Shown: positions 6,587 to 29,578 of the stretch, piece by piece
Position numbering within the stretch: the stretch's first letter is position 1
Layout: every line of letters starts with the position of its first letter
The notes under the pieces: model-generated
What the model was told of the DNA's origin: nothing
Database searches by the model: none
The model's input: the letters and a program-made list of their open reading frames with translations, nothing else
Program-made: the position numbers and the translations under genes
Origin: an uncultured Nitrospirota bacterium
Lineage (GTDB): Bacteria > Nitrospirota > Nitrospiria > 2-01-FULL-66-17
Reading direction: 5' to 3'
DNA length: 64,000 bases
Assembly: GCA_964570625.1 (NCBI GenBank)
Contig: CAZMYW010000027.1
Span: 285,510 to 349,509 of the forward strand

Positions 6587-7702
6587 TTGGAAGACGCCTT
6601 CAGACACCCGATGACCAACCACACACCCAGTCCCGTCCCCCATTTCATCACGGTGGGATGGCAGGACGGCTGCGTGCGCCTCCTGGACCAGCGCCGCCTG
6701 CCGGAAGAAGTGCGTTACCTCGACTGCACCGACTATCGCGAAGTCGCGGAGGCCATCAGAACCCTGGCGGTCCGCGGGGCGCCAGCCATCGGGATCGCTG
6801 CGGCTATGGGTCTTGCCCTTGGAGCCACGACATTGGTCCCGGCATCGTCCGATGAGTTCCAGAGCGGGCTCTCAAAGATCGCCGACGACCTGGCCTCGAC
6901 CCGCCCGACGGCGGTCAATTTGTTTTGGGCATTGGATCGGATGAAGCGCGTCGCCGCGCAGCATCAACACCTTGAGCGCGGAGCCCTGGTTCGGCGTCTC
7001 ATCCAGGAATCTCAAGTGATACTTGAAGAAGACGTGGCGATGAATCGCGCCATGGGAGCGATCGGCGCCACGTTCATTCACGATGGGAACACGATCCTCA
7101 CCCACTGCAACGCCGGCGCGTTGGCGACCGGCGGGTACGGTACGGCCCTCGGGGTGATTCGGGCCGCGTGGGGAAGCGGGAAGCGTATCCGGGTCGTCGC
7201 CGACGAGACGCGGCCGGTGCTCCAAGGTGCGCGCCTCACGGCATGGGAACTGATGCAAGACAGTATTCCGGTCACCCTGATCACCGACAACATGGCAGGC
7301 GCTCTCATGCGGCAGGGCCGCATCCAAGCGTGTATCGTAGGCGCGGACCGGATCGCGGCCAACGGCGACGTGGCGAACAAGATCGGCACCTACAGCGTCG
7401 CGGTGCTCGCTCGCCATCACGGTCTTCCGTTTTATGTGGCTGCGCCGACCTCCACCCTCGACCTCTCGCTACGCTCCGGCGCCGACATTCCCATCGAATC
7501 CCGCAATTCTCGCGAAGTCACACACGTCCACGGGGGGACCACCGTCGCGCCGGACGGTGTGGAGGTGGACAACCCCGCGTTCGACGTCACGCCCGCAGAA
7601 CTCATCACCGCCATCATCACGGAAAAAGGCGCCTTCCGGCCGGCCGACATCCATCGCCTCAATGGCGACGGCGCATCGTTGGCCCCACACCGTCTCGCGT
7701 AA
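6587..7702 (+). CDS. mtnA: S-methyl-5-thioribose-1-phosphate isomerase (eIF-2B alpha/beta/delta family)
   Basis: [32 protein letters not shown] and [21 protein letters not shown] motifs typical of MtnA. Confidence 0.85.
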
Positions 7703-9457: not shown

Positions 9458-9901
9458 TCAGGCCGCCCTCACCTCGGACGTACAGTGCGGGCAGCGCGTC
9501 GCTTTGATCGGGATGGTAGAGATGCAGTGTGGACAGGTCTTCGTCGTCGGAACCGCTGGCGCCGACACGGGTTCGCGCTTCAGCCGATTGACCTGTTTGA
9601 CCAGCACAAAGATCACGGCGGCGACAATGACGAAGTCCACCACCGTGTTGAGGAACAGCCCGTAGTTGACTGTGGCTGCGCCGGCCGCTTTAGCCGCCTC
9701 CACCGATGGATACGCGGTGTCGGAGAGATTCAGAAATAGGTTCGAAAAATTCACGCTACCCAACGCCAACCCGATCGGCGGCATCAACACGTCGCTCACC
9801 AACGACGACACGATCTTCCCAAACGCCGCGCCGATGATGATCCCCACCGCCATGTCGAGCACATTGCCGCGCATCACGAATTCTTTGAATTCTTTTAGCA
9901 T
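9458..9901 (-). CDS. mscL: large-conductance mechanosensitive channel MscL with C-terminal CxxC..CxxC zinc-ribbon extension
   Basis: [44 protein letters not shown] is near-identical to the E. coli MscL N-terminus. The start was trimmed to this Met. The C-terminus reads [20 protein letters not shown]. Confidence 0.85.
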
Positions 9902-10127
9902 GGGTCCCTCCCTCATCGTTGAGTTGATTCCCAGACGAACGGTCCCCGTCTGTGCGAGCATCCCGGAGTGGCAATAGCCCAGAGCGACCCGGATTGTACG
10001 AAGAAAGGATCGACATTCCAACCCCCCATTGAAGAGCGCCGACTCCAACGTTTCGGGCGTGACCAGGGGGAGAACCGGCGATGGCGTCAGGCAGGTGTTG
10101 CGGGGTGGCGGTCGGGCCGCGGCGCGT

Positions 10128-20196: not shown

Positions 20197-21933
20197 TTAT
20201 CGCTCTCGGTACCGATTCGTCACGGGCATCCGGCGGTCTTTGCCCAGGGCGCGGGGGGTGAGTTTGATGCCGATGGGGGCTTGGCGGCGCTTGTATTCGC
20301 TGTGGTCGACCATGCGGGCCACGGTTTCGACCATCTTTTTTGGATAACCCATCGCTACGATTGATTCCAGCGCTTTATCCTCTTCGACGTACGCCTTGAG
20401 GATAGCGTCCAACACGTCGTACGGCGGCAGCGTGTCTTGATCACGCTGATTGTGCTTGAGCTCTGCGGTCGGTGCGCGATCAATGATCCGCTGCGGGATC
20501 ACCTTCCCGGCCGCGTTGCGGTGGCGCGCGAGATCGTAGACGCACGTCTTATACACGTCTTTGATGACGGCGAATCCGCCGGCCATGTCTCCGTAGAGCG
20601 TGGCGTATCCCACGCTCATCTCGCTTTTGTTGCCAGTCGTCAGCACGAGCCAGCCGAACTTGTTTGAGAGCGCCATGAGGAAGTTACCGCGAATCCTCGC
20701 CTGAACGTTTTCTTCCGTCGTGTCCGGACGGCGACCGGAAAATGCCTCGGCCAGTGCCTTCTCGTAGCCGGCCATCAGGCCGTGGATCGGCAGGGTGACC
20801 AGGCGAATCCCAAGGTTGTGGACGAGATGCTCGGTATCTTCGCGGCTCTGGGTGGAGGTGTACGGCGACGGCATGAACACGCCCACGACCCCCGAAGCAC
20901 CTAGCGCATCCGTGGCAATCGTGGCGGTGAGCGAGGAATCGATGCCTCCGCTGAGCCCGATCACCACAGTCTCGAACCCGTTCTTGGCGACGTAATCTTT
21001 GACTCCGGTCACCAGCGCGCGAAAAACCTCCTCCTCCGGCGCAAGCGCAGGAGCCACCGGGCGATTGACCCAGGTCCGTTTCGGCTTGGAGGATTTGATC
21101 GTCGGGACCTTCACCCGTTGCACGGCCCCGAACTGCTTCAGCATCGCCAACTTCTTTTTTCGACGTCGCGTATCGTGCAGACGCGCCTGAAACACCGCGT
21201 CAACGTCCAAATCGACGACCAGTAGCTCCTCGGCGAACTGCCGTCCCCGCGCCACAATCGTGCCCTGTTGATCTACGATCACACTGTGGCCGTCGAACAC
21301 GAGTTCGTCCTGCCCCCCCACGGCATTCACCGATGCGACCATCACCTGGTTATCCACCGCGCGCGTCGCGAACATCCGCTCGCGGAACGCGCCCTTGCCT
21401 TGGGAGTAGGGCGACGCGCCGATATTGACGATGACTTCAGCCTCACCGACCAGGGACTGTAGCTGCGTCGGCCCCTCTGGAAACCAAATGTCTTCGCAAA
21501 TGTTCACGCCGATGGTCACGCCATTGACATCGAACACCGAGCAGTCTCTCCCCGTTTGAAAGTACCGGTCTTCGTCGAACACGCCGTAGTTGGGGAGGTA
21601 CATCTTGCGGTGCATGCCGACCCGGCGGCCGTTGGCCAGGACAGCCGCGGCATTGAAGATATCACCGTCGCGGTCCACCACACCCACCACCGCGACGATT
21701 CCGCGCGTGGCCGACGTGATGGAATCCAGCGCCTTGAGGTTATCCTGAATAAAACGAGGCTTGAGGAGGAGGTCTTCTGGCGGATATCCGGGCAGCGACA
21801 TTTCGGGAAACGCCACGAGATCCGCGCCCGCTTTGCGCGCTTCCCCGATCAGCCGGCGAATCTTGGCGGCGTTGCCCGTCAGATCTCCGACCGTACTGTT
21901 TATTTGCGCGAGCGCAAGCCGCAGTCGACGCAT
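20197..21933 (-). CDS. nadE: glutamine-dependent NAD+ synthetase
   Basis: N-terminal CN-hydrolase domain (RLALAQINSTVGDL, FPEMSLPGYP) and a C-terminal NAD synthetase domain (VIGLSGGIDSS). Start at MRRLRLALAQ. Confidence 0.9.
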   Translation of the reverse strand: MRRLRLALAQINSTVGDLTGNAAKIRRLIGEARKAGADLVAFPEMSLPGYPPEDLLLKPRFIQDNLKALDSITSATRGIVAVVGVVDRDGDIFNAAAVLANGRRVGMHRKMYLPNYGVFDEDRYFQTGRDCSVFDVNGVTIGVNICEDIWFPEGPTQLQSLVGEAEVIVNIGASPYSQGKGAFRERMFATRAVDNQVMVASVNAVGGQDELVFDGHSVIVDQQGTIVARGRQFAEELLVVDLDVDAVFQARLHDTRRRKKKLAMLKQFGAVQRVKVPTIKSSKPKRTWVNRPVAPALAPEEEVFRALVTGVKDYVAKNGFETVVIGLSGGIDSSLTATIATDALGASGVVGVFMPSPYTSTQSREDTEHLVHNLGIRLVTLPIHGLMAGYEKALAEAFSGRRPDTTEENVQARIRGNFLMALSNKFGWLVLTTGNKSEMSVGYATLYGDMAGGFAVIKDVYKTCVYDLARHRNAAGKVIPQRIIDRAPTAELKHNQRDQDTLPPYDVLDAILKAYVEEDKALESIVAMGYPKKMVETVARMVDHSEYKRRQAPIGIKLTPRALGKDRRMPVTNRYRER

Positions 21934-22176
21934 GCCCACCTCCGCAAAAACTGTACTCACGGCGGGGATGAGGTGTCAAGAACACTGATCCGCGCTTCCA
22001 ACGTGACCGGGTTGTGGACCGAGAAGCGTATTCATGCACTATGAGACAGGAGCCCGTTCAGGAATGCGTCGGATGCCAGGCGGAGCGAGCGCCCGCACCG
22101 CAGCGTACTGTGTCGTACGTGAGGAGCGGACGCGGAGCGACAACGCCGCAGACGGCCATTCATGAACGGGCTCCCG

Positions 22177-22599
22177 CTACCGGACGATCAGCGTGCCCTT
22201 CATGCCGTTGTCATGATGAGAGACTGGGGCTTCCGCGTCGCAGCGAAACGAAAACTCCCCGGCCTTCTTCGGCGTAAACCTGATGATCACCGTGGCGCCC
22301 GGCAAGACTTCCAATTCCTCGACACCATGAACCAGCGCAATCGCGCCCTTGGTCTCCAAATCCACCTTGATGTCCGCCAGCACGTCGGACACGAATTCGT
22401 GCAACACCTTGCCAGAATTCACCAACTTCAGCTCAACCGGTTTTCCGCTTTGAATCTCGATCTGAGCGGGTTCGAACTTGTATTCGGTCATTCGAATCGT
22501 CACGGTTTGCGGCGCCGGCGGAATAGTCCGTTCATCCGCCACGGCGTGGACCGTCAACAATCCCATCGTCAGCATACCGGCCAATATCACTGCTCTCAT
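22177..22599 (-). CDS. cupredoxin-like (type-1 blue copper) periplasmic protein
   Basis: Signal peptide MRAVILAGMLTMGLLTVHA. Candidate Cu ligands are H (HEF), C (FRCD), H (SHHD) and M (NGM), in a beta-sandwich-sized 140-aa product. Start trimmed to the internal Met, which is ATGA-coupled to the upstream gene. Confidence 0.65.
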   Translation of the reverse strand: MRAVILAGMLTMGLLTVHAVADERTIPPAPQTVTIRMTEYKFEPAQIEIQSGKPVELKLVNSGKVLHEFVSDVLADIKVDLETKGAIALVHGVEELEVLPGATVIIRFTPKKAGEFSFRCDAEAPVSHHDNGMKGTLIVR

Positions 22600-23090
22600 T
22601 GTTTCCTCCCCTTCCACCACATGTCGTACAACGGCACCCCGATCAACACCACGGCAGTCCCGGTCATCACCACCCAGCTCGCGATTTGGAGCATGGCAAA
22701 CCCGGGGGCCACGAACCGAATCAGCCACGGAGACGCCAAGTCACTGAACGTCGCCGCAAACGCCAGCACGATCACGGTTCGTTTCAACGGAAGACCGATC
22801 GATGTCGCGACGAACAGGTGCGTCAACACCAACAGGACGATCCCTTCGATAAACGCATGGAAGTGTAGTTCCTCCAGCATCTGGCCCACCGGCCTCGGCA
22901 ACAGGTCTTCATCCCCCGATCCACGATAATGCTCGACGACCTGTTGATACTGCGGCCCCACCCTGGTGAAGGCGATCGCCACCAAACTCACGTAGCCCAC
23001 CGCGGCGAACACCAAGAAAGCCGTGTAAATCGCCTTGAGCTCCGGCGGGCTGAACCGGATCTGGAACCCCTGACGAGAAAAATCTTTCAT
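22596..23090 (-). CDS. 4-TM integral membrane protein, unknown family, His-rich second helix
   Basis: Four predicted helices and LHFHAFIEGIVLLVLTHLF. ATGA overlaps join it to both neighbours. Confidence 0.55.
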   Translation of the reverse strand: MKDFSRQGFQIRFSPPELKAIYTAFLVFAAVGYVSLVAIAFTRVGPQYQQVVEHYRGSGDEDLLPRPVGQMLEELHFHAFIEGIVLLVLTHLFVATSIGLPLKRTVIVLAFAATFSDLASPWLIRFVAPGFAMLQIASWVVMTGTAVVLIGVPLYDMWWKGRKQ

Positions 23091-24631
23091 GACCCGTCTC
23101 CGCCGGCCCCGTACACCGTCGCCGTCAGGGCCAACGCCGTCTTCACCGCCTGCGCGGTGGAGCGGGAGGACAACGTCGCGCCGCTAATCCCGTGGATGTC
23201 GCGGCCGAGGCGTAACGGCGCCGCCAGTGTCTTGCCGGTAAACTGGGCGAGAAATCGCTTGGAACGGATCTCCGAACCCTGCGACTCGCGATAGATCAAC
23301 ACCTGCACGCCCCGCACCACACCCTCGGGAGCGACCGCGACCATAAACGTGATCGGCTGCTCCTTCCCGATAACGTCCACCACCGTCGCATAACCCAACG
23401 CTCCTTCGGCGCCGGTACCGACCCAAAAGGTGACCTCCGACTCGCGAACTCGCCTCCCGATCAGGGATTCGATCCGCGCCCGGTGGCCTTCCGTGAGTGA
23501 CACGGTTTCCTGCGTAAATTGCTCGGCCTCGGGGATCAAAGCCTTGAGCGCTTCTTCACGGCTCATGTACACCACGGCCTGGCCCAACGGTGGACGCACC
23601 ATCATCGCCATCACCGCAGCGACCATTCCGACCAGTATCCGGCGCCTAGCGAGCATATGCGGGGGACAAGGCTCCACCACCAACTCGCTCCATCCGGACG
23701 TCTGGCTGGTGACCACCCGTCCCGTATCGTCCGCGCTCGCAATCACCCCGTCGAGTCCCTGTTGGCCCAACAGATCCACCCCAGCGCGCGGACCCAACAC
23801 AAAGGCCGCCGTGGACAACGCATCGGCATCGAGCGCGGTCCTCGCCACCACCGACGCACTCGCCGCGCGGTGGGCCGGACGCCCTGTTCTGGGATCCAGA
23901 ATGTGGCCGTATCGGATCCCACGGATGATCACGGCCTGTTGGTCGTCTCCCGATGTGGCCAATGCGGCATCGCTCAAGCACACCACGCCCAAGACGCGAT
24001 TCGGATCCCGCGGGTGCCTGATGCCCACACGCCACCCGTCCTCACCAGGCGGCTTCCCGATCGCGTACGCCACGCTGCCGAAATCCACGAGCGCCGACGA
24101 CACGCCCGCTGCGATCAACAACCGGACGACTCGGTCGATGGTATAGCCCTTGCCCATCGCGCCGAACTCGAGTTCCACACAGGAATCTCGGTAGGCCACC
24201 GTCCCGGCGTGCGGATCCACGGCAATCATGGAAAATCCCACTCCAGCCAACAGTCCTTCCAACTCGTCCCCGGCAAGCGGCCGCAACGGCACGCCGCCGT
24301 ATCGGTCGTCACGAATCCGCCACGAGCGCGTGAGCGGCGAGACCGTGGCATCCACGGTCCCGCCGCTGATGACCGAAAACCGACGCGCCGCTTCAATCAA
24401 CCCGAGCAGCTCGGCACCGACCACGACCGGTCCGCGCCAGGCCTCGCGATTGACCCGCGACATCTCGCTGGTCGGATCAAACACGCTCAGCAGGCGTTCG
24501 ATCCGCACGGCCTCGGCAAACGCAGCGCGGAGCAATTCGTTCCCCGGTTCAGGGTCAGTGCCAGGAAGCGTGATATCGAGCACGCTCCCCATACACGGCT
24601 GGCTCCCTCTGGTGATTGGCCGGGCCATCAA
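23087..24631 (-). CDS. FAD:protein FMN transferase (ApbE) fused via a TM segment to an FMN-binding (NqrC/RnfG/NosR-type) domain
   Basis: ApbE-like N-terminal region of about 330 aa, then the hydrophobic RRRILVGMVAAVMAMMV segment. The C-terminal domain carries the flavinylation motif GISGATLSSRS. Confidence 0.75.
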   Translation of the reverse strand: MMARPITRGSQPCMGSVLDITLPGTDPEPGNELLRAAFAEAVRIERLLSVFDPTSEMSRVNREAWRGPVVVGAELLGLIEAARRFSVISGGTVDATVSPLTRSWRIRDDRYGGVPLRPLAGDELEGLLAGVGFSMIAVDPHAGTVAYRDSCVELEFGAMGKGYTIDRVVRLLIAAGVSSALVDFGSVAYAIGKPPGEDGWRVGIRHPRDPNRVLGVVCLSDAALATSGDDQQAVIIRGIRYGHILDPRTGRPAHRAASASVVARTALDADALSTAAFVLGPRAGVDLLGQQGLDGVIASADDTGRVVTSQTSGWSELVVEPCPPHMLARRRILVGMVAAVMAMMVRPPLGQAVVYMSREEALKALIPEAEQFTQETVSLTEGHRARIESLIGRRVRESEVTFWVGTGAEGALGYATVVDVIGKEQPITFMVAVAPEGVVRGVQVLIYRESQGSEIRSKRFLAQFTGKTLAAPLRLGRDIHGISGATLSSRSTAQAVKTALALTATVYGAGGDGS

Positions 24632-24635
24632 TCGG

Positions 24636-25832
24636 TCAATGGAATTGATACCCTACGCCTAGATTGAACCGGGTGCCGTCGTTGTCGGCCCCGTCTTCCC
24701 AGCTCTCCAGATCGGCCTTCACCGCAACATCCGGAATCGGGTAATAGGCCAAACCTGCGGTCATCACCTGCCGTTCGTTGGCCGGATTGGCGGTGAAGCC
24801 GGTCGGCATCGACTTCTGCGTGTCGAAATCTTCATACCGGATGAACGCGACCACGGACTGGTTCGTATCGGGAGCCAGTAGTTTGAGGAAATCATAAGCG
24901 GCTTCCAGGTACCACCCCATCATCTCCTCGCCGACGTCCTCCCCTGTAGCCGTGCTAATCTCAGCCGCACTATCCACGCTGATCGACGCCACCACACCGC
25001 GCAAATCCAGGCCGGCAAGACGCAGCCTCGCGTCCGCCTCCAGAATCCCCACCCCTGCATCGCCCAGCGCCGAGTTCTTCGTGGTATTGGCGCCGCCCTG
25101 GTAGACCGAGAGCCCGAGGTCCACACCCGGCAAGCCGACGTACTCCAATCGGCCCACGATCGCCAGCTCGTCCGAGGGCTGCTCCGCCACGTGTCCCCGC
25201 CCGCCGCGAATCCCGTTCGACGCGGTAAAGCCTTCGGCATTCAACCCGGACACGAGGTACACGCGGTACTTGAGGCCGGCCGGAACCGAGCCGAAGAACC
25301 CAACGCCGCCCTCTTGCCACGTAGTCGGAATGATGGTGCGCTGCACGTACGGTCGCTCCACGCTGTAAAAGAGCGGGGGCTCATGGAATTCGTTCAGCGG
25401 TCCCACCGGCATCAGCATACTGCCGGTCCGCACGTTGAAAGCCGGCGTGATGAGGAAATCCAGGTACGCAAACTCGAGCTCGATCTCGGTGGCCGCGTGC
25501 TCGAAATCGACCTCGGTGTGGACGCTGATGCGGTCGTTAAACTGATAACTCACCCCCCACACCATCCGGTGCAAATCCATGATCGCCGGGGCGTCGTCAT
25601 CGGGAACGCCCGATCCCTCAGGGCTATTGAAATGCAGCTCGCCATACCCGTGGAAACTCACCTTCCCCGTTCCGGATCCCCCGTGCGAGTCGGCCCCGCC
25701 GCCCCCTAGTTGATCCAGGCGCGACTCGATGTGGTCGAGCCGCTCGGTCACCGACTCATCCGCCAGCACGCTCATTGCCGCCGGCCCGACAAGCCATAAA
25801 CAAACCCCCAGCGTGGCCATAGTTCTCTTCAT
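24636..25832 (-). CDS. outer-membrane porin (beta-barrel, phosphate-selective-porin-like)
   Basis: Signal peptide and an amphipathic beta-strand pattern with aromatic girdle residues. C-terminus is ..GVGYQFH. GGAGGA RBS. Confidence 0.65.
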   Translation of the reverse strand: MKRTMATLGVCLWLVGPAAMSVLADESVTERLDHIESRLDQLGGGGADSHGGSGTGKVSFHGYGELHFNSPEGSGVPDDDAPAIMDLHRMVWGVSYQFNDRISVHTEVDFEHAATEIELEFAYLDFLITPAFNVRTGSMLMPVGPLNEFHEPPLFYSVERPYVQRTIIPTTWQEGGVGFFGSVPAGLKYRVYLVSGLNAEGFTASNGIRGGRGHVAEQPSDELAIVGRLEYVGLPGVDLGLSVYQGGANTTKNSALGDAGVGILEADARLRLAGLDLRGVVASISVDSAAEISTATGEDVGEEMMGWYLEAAYDFLKLLAPDTNQSVVAFIRYEDFDTQKSMPTGFTANPANERQVMTAGLAYYPIPDVAVKADLESWEDGADNDGTRFNLGVGYQFH

Positions 25833-25920
25833 TGCTCCTCCTTCGTGGGTGAATGGTGATTCGACTGACTGGGCGCTGGGTGCTCCAAGACCGCTGGCCT
25901 CTGTGGATTCTACCGGTCGT

Positions 25921-26085
25921 CTAACGCGAGGAAACGTTGGGATCGCGCGGAGGCGGAACGGTTCCGGCGATGCGATTCTGGGGAATGAGGACGGTGCGCT
26001 TGCAGCGACGGCACTTCAGCTCCAGGACATCGCCTCTCCACCGGGCCATGAGGCCACCGCACAAGCAGCGGACTTCGGACGCCAC
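25921..26085 (-). CDS. small Com-like zinc-ribbon protein
   Basis: VRCLCGGLMARWRGDVLELKCRRCKRTVLI resembles phage Mu Com (..IRCPHCNKLL..ELKCPRCK..). Start placed at the GTG with a GGAAG RBS. The track ORF start at 26148 abuts the operator and leaves no RBS. Confidence 0.45.
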   Translation of the reverse strand: MASEVRCLCGGLMARWRGDVLELKCRRCKRTVLIPQNRIAGTVPPPRDPNVSSR

Positions 26086-26150
26086 TTTTTCTTCCGCTCG
26101 GCGGGGAGTCACGAGGCTCGATTTCGGTGTCTGTTCACGCTCACCCAATT

Positions 26151-26218
26151 GATAATGGAATTAGATTTCAATTTCATTAAATGGGCGTCATAGTAGTAGG
26201 ATCGGAACAGCTTGTCAA
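26151..26218 (-). promoter_or_regulatory. promoter/operator module 1: TTGACA, 17 nt, TACTAT, followed by a Fur-box-like AT-rich palindrome (GATAATGGAATTAGATTTCAATTTCATTA)
   Basis: Read on the minus strand: -35 TTGACA (26213-26218), -10 TACTAT (26190-26195), then the palindromic AT-rich site 26151-26180 immediately upstream of the Com-like/porin operon. About 80 bp is homologous to module 2. Confidence 0.5.
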
Positions 26219-26279
26219 GCGGGAACGTTCGGACGTGGGAGTTCAGGAACGCCGCGGACGGCGGCGTTGCCCGGTAGGA

Positions 26280-26753
26280 CTACTCTTTCTTGATCTGTTG
26301 ACTGAGGTAGTTTTCAACCCCGACCCGCTTGATCGCGTCGAGTTGGGTTTCGATCCACTCGATGTGCTCCTCTTCACCCTGGACCATCCGCTCCAATTTT
26401 CCGCGGGTGTTGTAGTCCCCCACTTTCACGCAATGGGTGATCGCGTCGGTCAGGACACCCACCGCCTCCTGTTCGAGCCGCAGATCCAAGTTCAACTGTT
26501 CCAGGACGGTTTCGCCGATCTGCACTTGGCCCAGTCTCTGGAGGTTGGGAATCCCGTCGAGGAAGAGAATATGCTCGATGAGTTCGTGGGCGTCTTTCAT
26601 CTCGTCGAAGCTGTGTTTCTTGATCTTTTCGTACAAGCGCTCGAATCCCCAGTGACGACACATTTCCGCGTGCACGAAATATTGATTGATCGCAGTGAGC
26701 TCGTTGGTCAACACGCGGTTCAGCGAATCAACGACGCCCTTTTTGGCTTTCAT
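26280..26753 (-). CDS. bfr: bacterioferritin
   Basis: MKAKKGVVDSLNRVLTNELTAINQYFVHAEM and the EExH ferroxidase residues. 157 aa from the internal Met. Confidence 0.9.
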   Translation of the reverse strand: MKAKKGVVDSLNRVLTNELTAINQYFVHAEMCRHWGFERLYEKIKKHSFDEMKDAHELIEHILFLDGIPNLQRLGQVQIGETVLEQLNLDLRLEQEAVGVLTDAITHCVKVGDYNTRGKLERMVQGEEEHIEWIETQLDAIKRVGVENYLSQQIKKE

Positions 26754-26856
26754 GGTACCTCCCGGACGATGTGGTGACGGGGCTCTAGAACGTGAACGAG
26801 TGGCACCGTATCTCACCGGACCGGGGGATGTCAACAAGGTGCGAGGAACGCAGGGG

Positions 26857-27078
26857 TTACGAGCGGCTGGAGGTGCCGGCTGGAGCCATTCGCTTGGTTT
26901 TGAACTGTTCGGTTCGGGCAAGCGCGGCGAGATCCGCAATCCGCGTCACGCAACGTCCACAACAGTCGTCCCGGTCGATGCCCAGTTCCTCGGCCAACGC
27001 TTTGGGGCTGACGATCCCTGCGCGACCCAAGCTGCGGACATGGGAATCGGTGATGCCTTTACATAAACAGATATACAT
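26857..27078 (-). CDS. bfd: bacterioferritin-associated ferredoxin (2Fe-2S)
   Basis: MYICLCKGITD ... CCGRC cysteine pattern. 73 aa. Confidence 0.8.
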   Translation of the reverse strand: MYICLCKGITDSHVRSLGRAGIVSPKALAEELGIDRDDCCGRCVTRIADLAALARTEQFKTKRMAPAGTSSRS

Positions 27079-27096
27079 ATGCGACCGCCCTCACCG

Positions 27097-27161
27097 TTCA
27101 ATATTGTTCGATATTGAATTGCTTTTTCAAAATTCTAGCTGATCGGACGGGCACGTGTCAA
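27097..27161 (-). promoter_or_regulatory. bfd-proximal promoter (TTGACA, 18 nt, TAGAAT) with a 22-bp palindrome TTCAATATTGTTCGATATTGAA in the short leader
   Basis: -35 at 27156-27161 and -10 at 27132-27137 on the minus strand. The near-perfect inverted repeat at 27097-27118 lies between the predicted TSS and the bfd ATG (27078). Confidence 0.45.
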
Positions 27162-27350
27162 GCAGCGAGTTTCGGATGGGGTATCGACCCCGCAGGGCCT
27201 CCCCGAGGAGAGCGAAAAAAAAGAAACGCCCGGAATGAATGCATTCCGGGCGTTGGGCAAGTAAGCCTCGAGCCTCTGCAGTGCTGTCGTTCGTCGCGGA
27301 GCCGTATCCGCGTTAGGCGATCGTCACGCTCTCAGTCGCCACATACTCGG

Positions 27351-27425
27351 ACAATGAAATTGGAATTAGATTTCATTTTCATTTACAATGCGCGCATCGT
27401 AGCCGAACGGGAAATGACTTGTCAA
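27351..27425 (-). promoter_or_regulatory. promoter/operator module 2: TTGACA, 18 nt, TACGAT, plus Fur-box-like palindrome AATGAAATTGGAATTAGATTTCATT
   Basis: Shares the 14-mer GGAATTAGATTTCA, the TTGACA element and the spacing with module 1. It sits between the fur stop and bfd. Confidence 0.45.
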
Positions 27426-27437
27426 GGGGAAACTGGA

Positions 27438-27944
27438 CTAGTGGCTGTGGGGTTGCGGCGGTTGCGGGGGGCGAGCCTGCTGCTGGCTTTTGTCCGCTCG
27501 GACGGTCTCGCAGGCCTTGCAGAACCCATACAACTCGAGCTTGTGGAACGTGATCCGAAAATCGTGCTGACGGGCCACGTTTTCCTGAAACTCCTCGATT
27601 TGAAAGTTCTCGAACTCGATGATCCGTCCGCAGTGGGTGCAGATCAGATGATCGTGGTGCGATTTCCAGGCCACGTTGTCGTAGATGGTTTTCCCCTTGC
27701 CGAAGTGCCGCTCTTGGGCGAGTTCCCACTGGCACAGCAGCTTGAGGGTCCGATACACGGTAATAATCCCGATCGAGGGATCTTTCTTGGCGACCTGGTT
27801 GTAGAGATCTTCGACCGTAATGTGGTCCTGGTTCAGAAAGAGCTGCGCGATCAACTCACGCTGATGCGTCAACTTCAGGCCGTGTTCGCGCAGTCGCGCG
27901 TGGAGTAGGTCTCGAGATCGAGATTTGGGGGCGGCTTTCACCAT
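27438..27944 (-). CDS. fur: ferric uptake regulator family transcriptional repressor
   Basis: LKLTHQRELIAQLF DNA-binding helix, HHDHLICTHCG..FCKAC metal sites and a Q/P-rich C-tail. Start trimmed to MVKAAPKS. Confidence 0.85.
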   Translation of the reverse strand: MVKAAPKSRSRDLLHARLREHGLKLTHQRELIAQLFLNQDHITVEDLYNQVAKKDPSIGIITVYRTLKLLCQWELAQERHFGKGKTIYDNVAWKSHHDHLICTHCGRIIEFENFQIEEFQENVARQHDFRITFHKLELYGFCKACETVRADKSQQQARPPQPPQPHSH

Positions 27945-28093
27945 CACATCACGTCGTACGACTTGTTGGAACGATACGCTGGTCTGAAAGAGCCTGTCAA
28001 GGTATCCCCGTCTGGAACGACTGCGCGGACCCGGACCCGCACCTTGACTTTCATCCGGGTTTCCATACAATGGCCCCTACTTGAGGAGACTGT

Positions 28094-28279
28094 ATGGCAT
28101 CCGGACGGGAACGAGCGAAAGAATTGAGACGGCGTCAGAAGCGGCGACGCGAGCGCCTTCGGGAAAAAATCAAATCCCTGAAAGCCAAAGCCCAGGTCCA
28201 CGCGGCTAAGAAACCCGTCAAAGCCAAACCGAAACGCGAAAAACCAGGCCCCGCCGCCGCTCCAGCCGAGTCCGCTTAA
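28094..28279 (+). CDS. small highly basic Lys/Arg-rich protein (hypothetical)
   Basis: 61-aa ORF with a GAGGAG RBS 8 nt upstream. It lies in an otherwise empty gap between fur and the ANTAR regulator. Confidence 0.35.
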   Translation: MASGRERAKELRRRQKRRRERLREKIKSLKAKAQVHAAKKPVKAKPKREKPGPAAAPAESA

Positions 28280-28327
28280 CCGACCGAGCACCCACCCCTT
28301 TCCCCCACGGGTCCGGCAAGACCTCGC

Positions 28328-29578
28328 TTACCGCTGACTGCGCGTCGTGCCGATCACGGCTTCCGCGACTTGCCGCATCGGCCGGCGGTTGTTCATACTC
28401 TGACGCTGCAGCACGCGAAAGGCCTCTTCCTCGGTCAGCCGGCGCTCCCGCATCAAGATGCCTTTGGCTTTCTCCACCAGTTTCCGCAGCTCCAACGCGT
28501 CGTGCATTTGCGCGGTCTCCTGCATCAAACGCGTGTTCTCGATCGCCACCGCCGCCTGATTGGCGATCGCCTGCAGCAACTCGATTTCGTCCGTCAAAAA
28601 CACGTGCGGCTCGGCAGTGTAGCTGTTGATCACGCCGACGGCTCGGTCTTTGTACAACATCGGCACTGACAGGAGAGAACGGAGTCCTTCTCGACGCGCC
28701 AGATCGGGATACACGTACCCCGGATCGGCCGTCACGTCGCAGACAGCGATCGGGCGTTTCTCCAGCACCGCCCGCCCGCTCACCGCCTGACCGATCTTGA
28801 GCGGCGGCTTGCTCCGGTACGCGTCGGACAGGCTCTGCGTGGCGGCGATACGCAGTTCCCCTCGCTCGTCGTCCGCGAGCATGATCGAGCAGATCGCGGA
28901 CCCCATGGTTCGAGCCGTGATCGTCACGATGAGGTGCAGCATCTCTTCGAGATACCGCGTCGATGTGATCGTGGTGCTTACCTGCAGGAGCGTCTCGAGC
29001 TGGAGCGTCTTACGGCGCATGCCTTCGTACAAACTGGCGTTTTCGATCGCCCCGCCCACCTGATGGCCGATCGCGGCAAGGAGCGCGATCTGCGAGACGG
29101 AATGGCGATGGGGATCCCGGTGCTGCACGTTGATCACGCCGATGACCTGGTCTTTGGCGATCACCGGCACGGACAAGAATGCCTGATAGCGGTCCTCGGG
29201 CAAGTTATGAAAACACTTGAACCGCGGGTCCTCGCTGGCGTGCTGGTCGATCGCCACGGGCGTACGCTCACGCGCGACCCATCCGGTGATCCCCTCCCCT
29301 ATCTCTAATTTGATTCGACCGATCAGTCGCGGATGCGGCTGTTTGGAGGCCCTCAGCACCAGTTCCTGATGGTTGTCATCGACGAGGTACAGAAACACGG
29401 CATCGCCAGCGGTCACCTCGACGACCAAGTCGATGATCTGTCGGAGCACGGCTTCCTGATCGAGCGTCCCACTGATGGTTTCGCTGATCCGTCGCAAGAC
29501 GTCCAATTCGCGGTTGGTCTGGCGCACCGCGTTGACGGCGGGGCGGGGTCGGCGGGACCGCGTGGTTATCGCAGCCAT
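28328..29578 (-). CDS. GAF-GAF-ANTAR RNA-binding antitermination regulator
   Basis: Two GAF domains and a C-terminal ANTAR domain (LRKLVEKAKGILMRERRLTEEEAFRVLQRQSMNNRRPMRQVAEAVI). Confidence 0.85.
   Translation of the reverse strand: MAAITTRSRRPRPAVNAVRQTNRELDVLRRISETISGTLDQEAVLRQIIDLVVEVTAGDAVFLYLVDDNHQELVLRASKQPHPRLIGRIKLEIGEGITGWVARERTPVAIDQHASEDPRFKCFHNLPEDRYQAFLSVPVIAKDQVIGVINVQHRDPHRHSVSQIALLAAIGHQVGGAIENASLYEGMRRKTLQLETLLQVSTTITSTRYLEEMLHLIVTITARTMGSAICSIMLADDERGELRIAATQSLSDAYRSKPPLKIGQAVSGRAVLEKRPIAVCDVTADPGYVYPDLARREGLRSLLSVPMLYKDRAVGVINSYTAEPHVFLTDEIELLQAIANQAAVAIENTRLMQETAQMHDALELRKLVEKAKGILMRERRLTEEEAFRVLQRQSMNNRRPMRQVAEAVIGTTRSQR

Follow-up and report, generated by a model that had tools for sequence, protein, structure and literature searches.

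Two promoters with a common, putative Fur operator at the fur–bfd–bfr locus of an uncultured Nitrospirota bacterium

Organization of the locus

The window—a stretch of 64,000 nucleotides (64 kb) from an uncultured Nitrospirota bacterium—carries two promoter modules that share an AT-rich, operator-like block. The genes around them lie on the minus strand in the order GAF-ANTAR regulator (29578-28328), fur, module 2, a non-coding stretch with a terminator, the bfd promoter, bfd, bfr, module 1, a small zinc-ribbon open reading frame (ORF), a porin gene, an ApbE/FMN_bind fusion, an Aq_1264_TM protein, a cupredoxin, and nadE. The preliminary description had placed module 1 upstream of the zinc-ribbon ORF and the porin and module 2 between fur and bfd, which is correct. 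Both modules are probably sigma-70-type promoters with a Fur operator over the start region, module 1 driving an iron-uptake operon and module 2 only a short, terminated non-coding RNA. The elements of the modules and the presumed regulator are given below together with matches to the Fur box of deltaproteobacteria (dFUR box); start sites are predictions from the spacing of the promoter hexamers.

26190..26218, minus strand: module 1 promoter, TTGACA (26218-26213), 17 nt, TACTAT (26195-26190); 10/12 matches in the promoter scan
26147..26179, minus strand: module 1 operator, TAATGAAATTGAAATCTAATTCCATTATCAATT; repeat statistics and a dFUR site at 26155-26171 (12/16)
27396..27425, minus strand: module 2 promoter, TTGACA (27425-27420), 18 nt, TACGAT (27401-27396); 10/12 matches in the promoter scan
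27352..27384, minus strand: module 2 operator, AAATGAAAATGAAATCTAATTCCAATTTCATTG; two dFUR-type boxes 6 bp apart at 27360-27376 and 27366-27382 (each 12/16)
27438..27944, minus strand: fur, Fur-family repressor of 168 amino acids, presumed regulator of both modules; Pfam FUR, E = 1.8e-35

Sequence of the two modules

The modules had been described as aligning on the minus strand in the order palindrome, TAC(T/G)AT, 17–18 nt, and TTGACA; a global alignment over approximately 76 nt confirms this, with 59 of 78 columns identical. The −35 hexamer of module 2 begins 12 nt past the fur stop codon. After the −10 hexamer, module 1 continues with 13 nt and then TGAAATTGAAATCTAATTCCATTATCAAT, module 2 with 14 nt and then TGAAAATGAAATCTAATTCCAATTTCATT; the operator of module 2 lies at approximately +6 to +38 of the predicted transcript. 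Promoter-like sites are overrepresented in the locus, the promoter scan yielding 7 against 1.1 expected.

The AT-rich block (26150-26178 in module 1 and 27355-27383 in module 2) forms a 29-nt direct repeat of 90% identity at a spacing of 1205 nt, and a second repeat block, CTTGTCAAG.., is common to the modules at 88% identity. With up to 2 mismatches allowed, the window contains the 14-mer GGAATTAGATTTCA exactly two times (0.21 expected; none of 100 shuffles reaches 2), and likewise the 23-mer TGGAATTAGATTTCAWTTTCATT with up to 3 mismatches (0.00 expected in 64 kb). The likeness is uneven, being concentrated in the −35, the −10, and the operator. The spacers between −35 and −10 agree at 10 of 18 positions, which is the chance level (equaled by 51% of shuffles, p = 0.51), the segment from the −10 to the operator agrees at 11 of 15 and lies above chance (p ~0.001), and within a few bases either side of promoter and operator the likeness stops, the flanks being unrelated. 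This blocky similarity therefore points to shared functional elements rather than to a freshly copied 80-bp segment.

The operator in related loci

Related loci (designated by L-numbers) were gathered by way of the Fur protein, Bfd, the porin, and the DNA pattern, and approximately 34 Nitrospirota loci were compared. The closest counterpart of module 2 is found in L025, where the sequence from the 3′ end of fur through the operator is nearly identical, whereas module 1 has its counterparts downstream of bfr in L002, L035, L036, and L038. The core of the operator, TGAAAWTGAAATCTAATTCCA, is present at 16 distinct Nitrospirota sites in one orientation, each 6 to 14 nt after TTGAC(A/G)-17/18-TAnnnT. 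The genes behind it serve iron acquisition. In L008, L009, L011, L019, and L034, they encode a Cupredoxin_1 protein (E = 1.4e-28) and an FTR1 iron permease (Pfam FTR1, E = 4.4e-42), whereas L026 has a periplasmic solute-binding protein there and L028 has ExbB. Elsewhere the zinc-ribbon ORF comes next, ahead of the porin operon in L002, L003, L036, L038, and L040, ahead of ExbB-ExbD-TonB in L035, and ahead of the porin or ExbBD-TonB in L017 and L025.

In many relatives, a more symmetric version, TGAAAT(T/C)-N-AA(T/A)TTCA, is placed after the −10 of fur and before its start codon. At these fur promoters, the core is found in either orientation, which fits a DNA site. When up to 2 mismatches are allowed, the palindrome TGAAATnTAATTTCA is found at 25 places in the 282 kb of the related loci—against a chance expectation below 1 by a back-of-envelope estimate—and 24 of the 25 occurrences fall in fur or iron-uptake promoter regions. 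Upstream and immediately downstream of the gene, the motif accompanies fur in more than 20 loci. A position weight matrix built from the 16 sites finds only the two modules in the window, being over-fitted to the core, and misses the box at the bfd promoter. Scanning a genome collection that excludes the genome of the window with GAAAWTGAAATCTAATTCCA returned only two Nitrospirota genomes and four chance matches, with one exact copy in a related genome.

Fur as the candidate regulator

The dFUR box of deltaproteobacteria has the consensus WTGAAAATNATTTTCAW, and pairs are described in which two boxes overlap at an offset of 6 bp (Rodionov et al. 2004, Genome Biol 5:R90; PMC545781). Boxes of the TGAAAAT type are missed by the E. 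coli profile, and the members of the dFUR regulon include fur, feoAB, and the phosphate-porin-like psp with Aquifex homologues (PMC545781). A scan of the window with the dFUR consensus at a threshold of at least 12/16 gives 6 matches as opposed to 0.78 in composition-preserving shuffles. Four of these lie within 26155-27382, namely the one in module 1 and the two in module 2 listed above and a further one at 27114-27130 in the bfd promoter.

The shared block features the TGAAAxT half-site (not TGATAAT), the 7-1-7 palindrome, and the overlapping boxes 6 bp apart of the dFUR box. It is likewise located at fur (in the relatives), at iron transporters, and at a phosphate-porin-like gene, the window sites matching at 12/16 and the sites in the relatives' fur promoters at approximately 12/14. 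It differs in its phylum, Nitrospirota, and in that its iron-uptake version is an extended, asymmetric, near-invariant block of approximately 30 nt, AATGAAAWTGAAATCTAATTCCAWTWTCAAT, instead of a degenerate palindrome. The Nitrospirota targets—FTR1 plus cupredoxin and ApbE/FMN_bind plus cupredoxin—take the place of feoAB. With the classical Fur boxes, the 19-bp GATAATGATAATCATTATC of E. coli and the 7-1-7 TGATAATNATTATCA of B. subtilis, the modules have in common the AT-rich hexamer array or 7-1-7 architecture, the location over the −10/start region of iron-starvation promoters, and an association with fur autoregulation, for which a site is seen here in the relatives. However, by manual counts, they match the E. 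coli consensus at approximately 10-11/19 and the B. subtilis consensus at approximately 9-11/14 positions. The boxes of RirA, DtxR/IdeR, Zur, and PerR, which were also considered, are not known to resemble the motif.

The product of fur has iron-sensing Fur as its top NCBIfam and PDB matches, ahead of Zur and PerR. The best structures are C. jejuni Fur and Magnetospirillum Fur, and the NCBIfam order is Fur before PerR and Zur, with all scores under the equivalog cut-offs. Its closest named relatives come from metagenome-assembled genomes of Nitrospirota.

Several points weigh against this assignment. The dFUR match amounts to only 12/16 per site, and the fur promoter of the window itself (TTGACA-18-TATCGT, 28000-27971; region 27945-28093) is without a Fur box. 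Approximately 21 positions of the operator are near-invariant across operons and species around an asymmetric center, which is unusually uniform for a transcription-factor site. The true binder could be another Fur-family paralogue elsewhere in the genome. As to the uniformity, the site set was chosen by core similarity and, hence, exaggerates it; beyond this selection bias, a composite multi-dimer site, gene conversion among operators, or an extra function could account for it. Even so, the best reading of the shared block is that it serves this Nitrospirota clade as its Fur operator. The common regulator that the preliminary description had proposed from the shared operator is, thus, retained, with Fur as the best candidate on the strength of the 16 related loci, the fur promoters of the relatives, and the dFUR match.

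In the mechanism predicted from these sites, the operator would be a local version of the TGAAAAT-N-ATTTTCA Fur-box type with overlapping 7-1-7 sites at a 6-bp offset. When iron is plentiful, Fe-Fur encoded by the adjacent fur would cover approximately +5 to +38 and block initiation or early elongation. Upon iron scarcity, Fur would depart and the near-consensus promoters would fire. Module 1 would then supply the zinc-ribbon protein, the porin-like protein, the ApbE/FMN-binding fusion, the membrane protein, and the cupredoxin. Three neighboring promoters—those of module 2, bfd, and module 1—would, in this way, be kept silent by Fe-Fur and derepressed when iron is limiting.

The operon of module 1

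Module 1 precedes the following genes:

25921..26085, minus strand (mechanical ORF to 26148): small zinc-ribbon ORF (CxC...CxxC), first cistron; protein conserved in L002, L003, L017, L035, and L040
24636..25832, minus strand: porin-like outer-membrane β-barrel protein, 398 amino acids; weak Porin_4 and OMP_b-brl matches only
24592-23087, minus strand: ApbE/FMN_bind fusion; family searches
23090-22596, minus strand: Aq_1264_TM membrane protein; family searches
22599-22177, minus strand: cupredoxin, with nadE next; family searches

The zinc-ribbon ORF likely starts at the GTG at 26085. Its product belongs to no Pfam or NCBIfam family and features the pattern ..RCLCGGL(M/L)ARWRG..ELKCRRCKRT.LI.. 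in the relatives as well (L002 16539-16691, L017 ~832-1020, L035 ~7030-7190, and L040 ~9720-9905), followed by the porin operon or ExbBD-TonB. In L017, the zinc-ribbon leader past the operator (745-815) carries a second AT-rich array, GTGAATGAAAATGAATATTAATATCAATATCAATATCAATA, that may hold additional Fur boxes.

By its context, the operon is predicted to be an iron-acquisition system of the outer membrane and periplasm. It is less novel than the preliminary description had it, since a porin resembling phosphate porins had already been predicted to be under Fur control in 2004 (PMC545781). By its description there, the putative porin gene psp of Geobacter and Desulfuromonas is likewise porin-like, with a weak affinity to the phosphate-selective porins (PF07396), and preceded by Fur boxes. 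PF07396 is also carried by some homologues of the window porin. Unlike psp, the window porin shares its operon with the zinc-ribbon ORF, ApbE/FMN_bind, Aq_1264_TM, and the cupredoxin.

Probable promoters of bfd and bfr

Between module 2 and module 1 lie the iron-storage genes, which appear to have promoters of their own:

27132..27161, minus strand: bfd promoter, TTGACA, 18 nt, TAGAAT; 11/12 matches, conserved in L002, L035, L036, and L038
27097..27131, minus strand: operator-like element at the bfd promoter, TGAAAAAGCAATTCAATATC; five-genome alignment and the dFUR match at 27114-27130 (12/16)
26857..27078, minus strand: bfd, bacterioferritin-associated ferredoxin; Pfam Fer2_BFD and NCBIfam
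26280..26753, minus strand: bfr, bacterioferritin; TIGR00754, E = 9.4e-56

The element TGAAAAAGCAATTCAATATC directly follows the −10 of bfd and is near-invariant in five genomes, with one A/T position; in the window, it is followed by the 8-6-8 palindrome TTCAATAT-N6-ATATTGAA. Promoter and box are found at 27097-27161 (minus strand) of the window, at 15486-15548 of L002, and at 9357-9410 of L040, and also in L035, L036, and L038. Hence, bfd is predicted to be transcribed from yet another promoter, the third to carry a Fur-like box. The spacer between bfd and bfr contains, by direct reading, a promoter-like TTGACA-18-TACGGT in the window (26757-26856) and in L002 (15779-15890) and no Fur-like box, which suggests that bfr may be expressed independently of bfd.

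The preliminary description had taken module 2 for the promoter of an iron-storage unit under the same operator as the porin operon. This part is not supported: the bfd promoter with its own box is found in five genomes, and a terminator with a 13-bp stem and a run of eight T (T8), which the preliminary description had overlooked, separates module 2 from bfd. Iron storage and the porin operon nevertheless remain linked by way of the third box and not by way of module 2.

The predicted transcript of module 2

The terminator is the best of the region and defines the following transcript:

27215..27389, minus strand: predicted non-coding transcript of module 2, approximately 175 nt, also the fur 3′ untranslated region; no ORF, own promoter, terminator
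27215..27254, minus strand: intrinsic terminator, 13-bp stem (27254-27225; 8 G-C pairs), 4-nt loop, tail TCTTTTTTTT (T8); repeat and terminator scans

Lying approximately 135 nt past the operator, the terminator severs module 2 from any ORF, so that its only product would be the non-coding RNA of approximately 175 nt. Within those ~135 nt, no ORF is found in any of the three frames, and an Rfam scan of 24000-29000 with E up to 10 shows nothing on the transcript. None of the approximately 34 Nitrospirota loci contains a homologue of the RNA body (27350-27255), blastn of 27200-27440 matching only operator and promoter. In L025, whose Fur is 96% identical, the same promoter runs directly into the zinc-ribbon ORF, which stands in place of the RNA body. 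Transcription of fur must cross the module 2 operator to reach the terminator at 27254-27225. As the cupredoxin and FTR1 genes occupy this place in relatives, the segment after module 2 was considered as a remnant of them, but no similarity to them was found.

Probable rearrangements at the operators

The commonest gene order among the relatives is GAF-ANTAR, fur, cupredoxin, FTR1 permease, (second cupredoxin), nadE, as judged by comparing 20197-29578 of the window with L034, L009-L013, and L040. The cupredoxin–FTR1 pair is absent from all 64 kb of the window, its place being occupied by bfd–bfr and the porin/ApbE/Aq_1264_TM genes. Of the two cupredoxins of the relatives, the window keeps only the second, directly before nadE.

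L025 is a hybrid at 1380-1549: its left part through the left operator resembles module 2, and from the right operator on it matches the sequence past module 1, i.e., the zinc-ribbon leader. The window would, therefore, have the arrangement of L025 with a 1.2-kb segment added between two copies of the operator, or else L025 would be a deletion product. The segment comprises the orphan RNA, the terminator, bfd, bfr, and the second promoter. Three loci with identical Fur and the same promoter diverge directly after the operator—L026 (~960-1035) into a solute-binding protein gene, L028 (~870-960) into ExbB, and L027 (~1950-2024) into a third sequence. L040 has kept the bfd promoter and its box and has no bfd–bfr. 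Taken together, the junctions in L025-L028 and L040 indicate that rearrangement breakpoints at or near the operators seem common in the locus and leave orphan promoters behind. The operator, thus, seems to act as a recombination junction; alternatively, the divergent junctions after it may be assembly artefacts at a repeat.

Divergent from fur, a gene for a small, strongly basic Lys/Arg-rich protein (MASGRER.KELRRRQKRRRE...) is conserved at 28094-28279 (plus strand) of the window, at 2180-2362 of L034, at 9645-9842 of L003, and at 1317-1523 of L040. Its promoter in the window is TTGACT-16-TACAAT at 28044-28071, and a 115-amino-acid gene called opposite to it in one public assembly is probably spurious.

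Orphaned promoter or small RNA

Given the terminator, the lack of an ORF, and the junctions in L025 and L040, the most probable reading of module 2 is a promoter that lost its genes when the locus was rearranged at the operator. It would be the promoter that lies directly downstream of fur in many relatives and drives iron-uptake genes there, and its orphaning would most likely be a by-product of recombination at the repeated operator.

A less likely reading is that module 2 promotes a genuine Fur-repressed small RNA of approximately 175 nt, an analogue of RyhB, PrrF, FsrA, or IsaR1 made under iron starvation, having its terminator in common with the fur mRNA and base-pairing with the mRNAs of iron-storage and iron-using proteins. 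The unit resembles the Fur-repressed small RNAs RyhB, PrrF1/2, FsrA, NrrF, and IsaR1 in its near-consensus promoter with an intact Fur box, its ORF-free length of approximately 175 nt, its strong Rho-independent terminator with a U8 tail, and its intergenic location beside the iron-storage genes bfd–bfr. Moreover, its fold is more stable than those of shuffled sequences, with a z-score of −3.05, and its 9-nt GC-rich stretch GAGGCUCGA (27266-27274) complements the leader of the zinc-ribbon ORF (26113-26121), which 2% of shuffles equal for that target alone. Yet the z-score is probably owed in large part to the terminator hairpin, and the 9-nt complement loses its significance after correction for the seven targets of the contiguous-complement test, i.e., the seven local start regions; the start regions of bfd, bfr, and fur show no complementarity beyond chance. 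Duplex energies of the RNA with all start regions were set aside in favor of this test because the duplexes were unrealistically long. The module 2 RNA differs from the known small RNAs in having no sequence or Rfam similarity, no conservation even in the closest relative L025, and no convincing target among these local start regions, and the recency of the rearrangement can explain why the promoter is still intact. A functional small RNA of this kind is, hence, unlikely.

Both readings would meet if module 2 yielded a functional Fur-repressed RNA of approximately 175 nt, ending at the fur-mRNA terminator, that arose recently as an iron-uptake promoter was cut off from its operon by recombination at the repeated operator; more broadly, the near-invariant operator of approximately 30 nt may be a junction that shuffles iron-uptake cassettes behind fur. 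This is a quite unlikely, speculative extension. If a functional small RNA were nonetheless made, it would give Nitrospirota its first proposed iron-sparing riboregulator.

Other readings of the shared block

The block might be bound by a regulator other than this Fur—be it a paralogue of the Fur family or an iron or redox regulator unrelated to it—or act at the RNA level as a 5′ leader element or through a leader peptide (MKMKSNS...). The 21-nt core is, indeed, unusual in its invariance and asymmetry and forms the 5′ end of an mRNA in every case, a short ORF from ATGAAA(A/T)TGAAATCT is readable in several loci, and the 5′ end of the module 2 transcript can form a hairpin. However, the leader peptide over the operator was rejected, as the ATG is missing in the five relatives L008, L009, L011, L019, and L034 (which read ..GTGAAATTG.. 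or ..CTGAAATTG..) and is preceded by no ribosome-binding site. An RNA element fits poorly with a distance from the −10 that varies between 6 and 14 nt, with a core that occurs in either orientation at fur promoters, and with a hairpin that is not conserved. As to another regulator, the motif accompanies this very fur gene in more than 20 loci and matches a published Fur box. Either variant is, therefore, very unlikely.

Even less probable is a reading in which the modules are alike by descent and not by shared regulation, either as a promoter cassette that is mobile or was recently duplicated, as the preliminary description had suggested, or as a repeat of the REP (repetitive extragenic palindrome) or MITE (miniature inverted-repeat transposable element) type: the direct repeat with its 1205-nt spacing brackets bfd–bfr, L026, L027, and L028 enter different genes right after the operator behind the same Fur and promoter, L025 resembles a module 2/module 1 recombinant as if the operator behaved as a recombination junction, and the segment from −10 to operator is alike above chance, but the −35/−10 spacers agree only at chance level—which argues against a recent or mobile duplication—the likeness is confined to −35, −10, and operator with unrelated flanks, closer matches to either module exist in other genomes, the 64 kb hold only two copies and the genome scan gave a single exact copy in a related genome, and no terminal inverted repeats or target-site duplications are seen at an element that always lies at a promoter before iron genes.

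Implications for iron regulation in Nitrospirota

The literature searched holds no description of a Nitrospirota Fur box or of a Fur-regulated small RNA in this phylum. The sites reported here reveal no new regulatory principle; what they provide for an uncultured lineage of Nitrospirota is a Fur box at the level of sequence, together with part of a Fur regulon. Its predicted members so far are fur (in the relatives), cupredoxin plus FTR1 permease, ExbBD-TonB, a solute-binding protein, bfd, and the zinc-ribbon/porin/ApbE-FMN-binding/cupredoxin operon. The box would be of use for annotating iron acquisition in environmental bacteria, and it points to a likely role for the so far uncharacterized porin/ApbE/cupredoxin operon.

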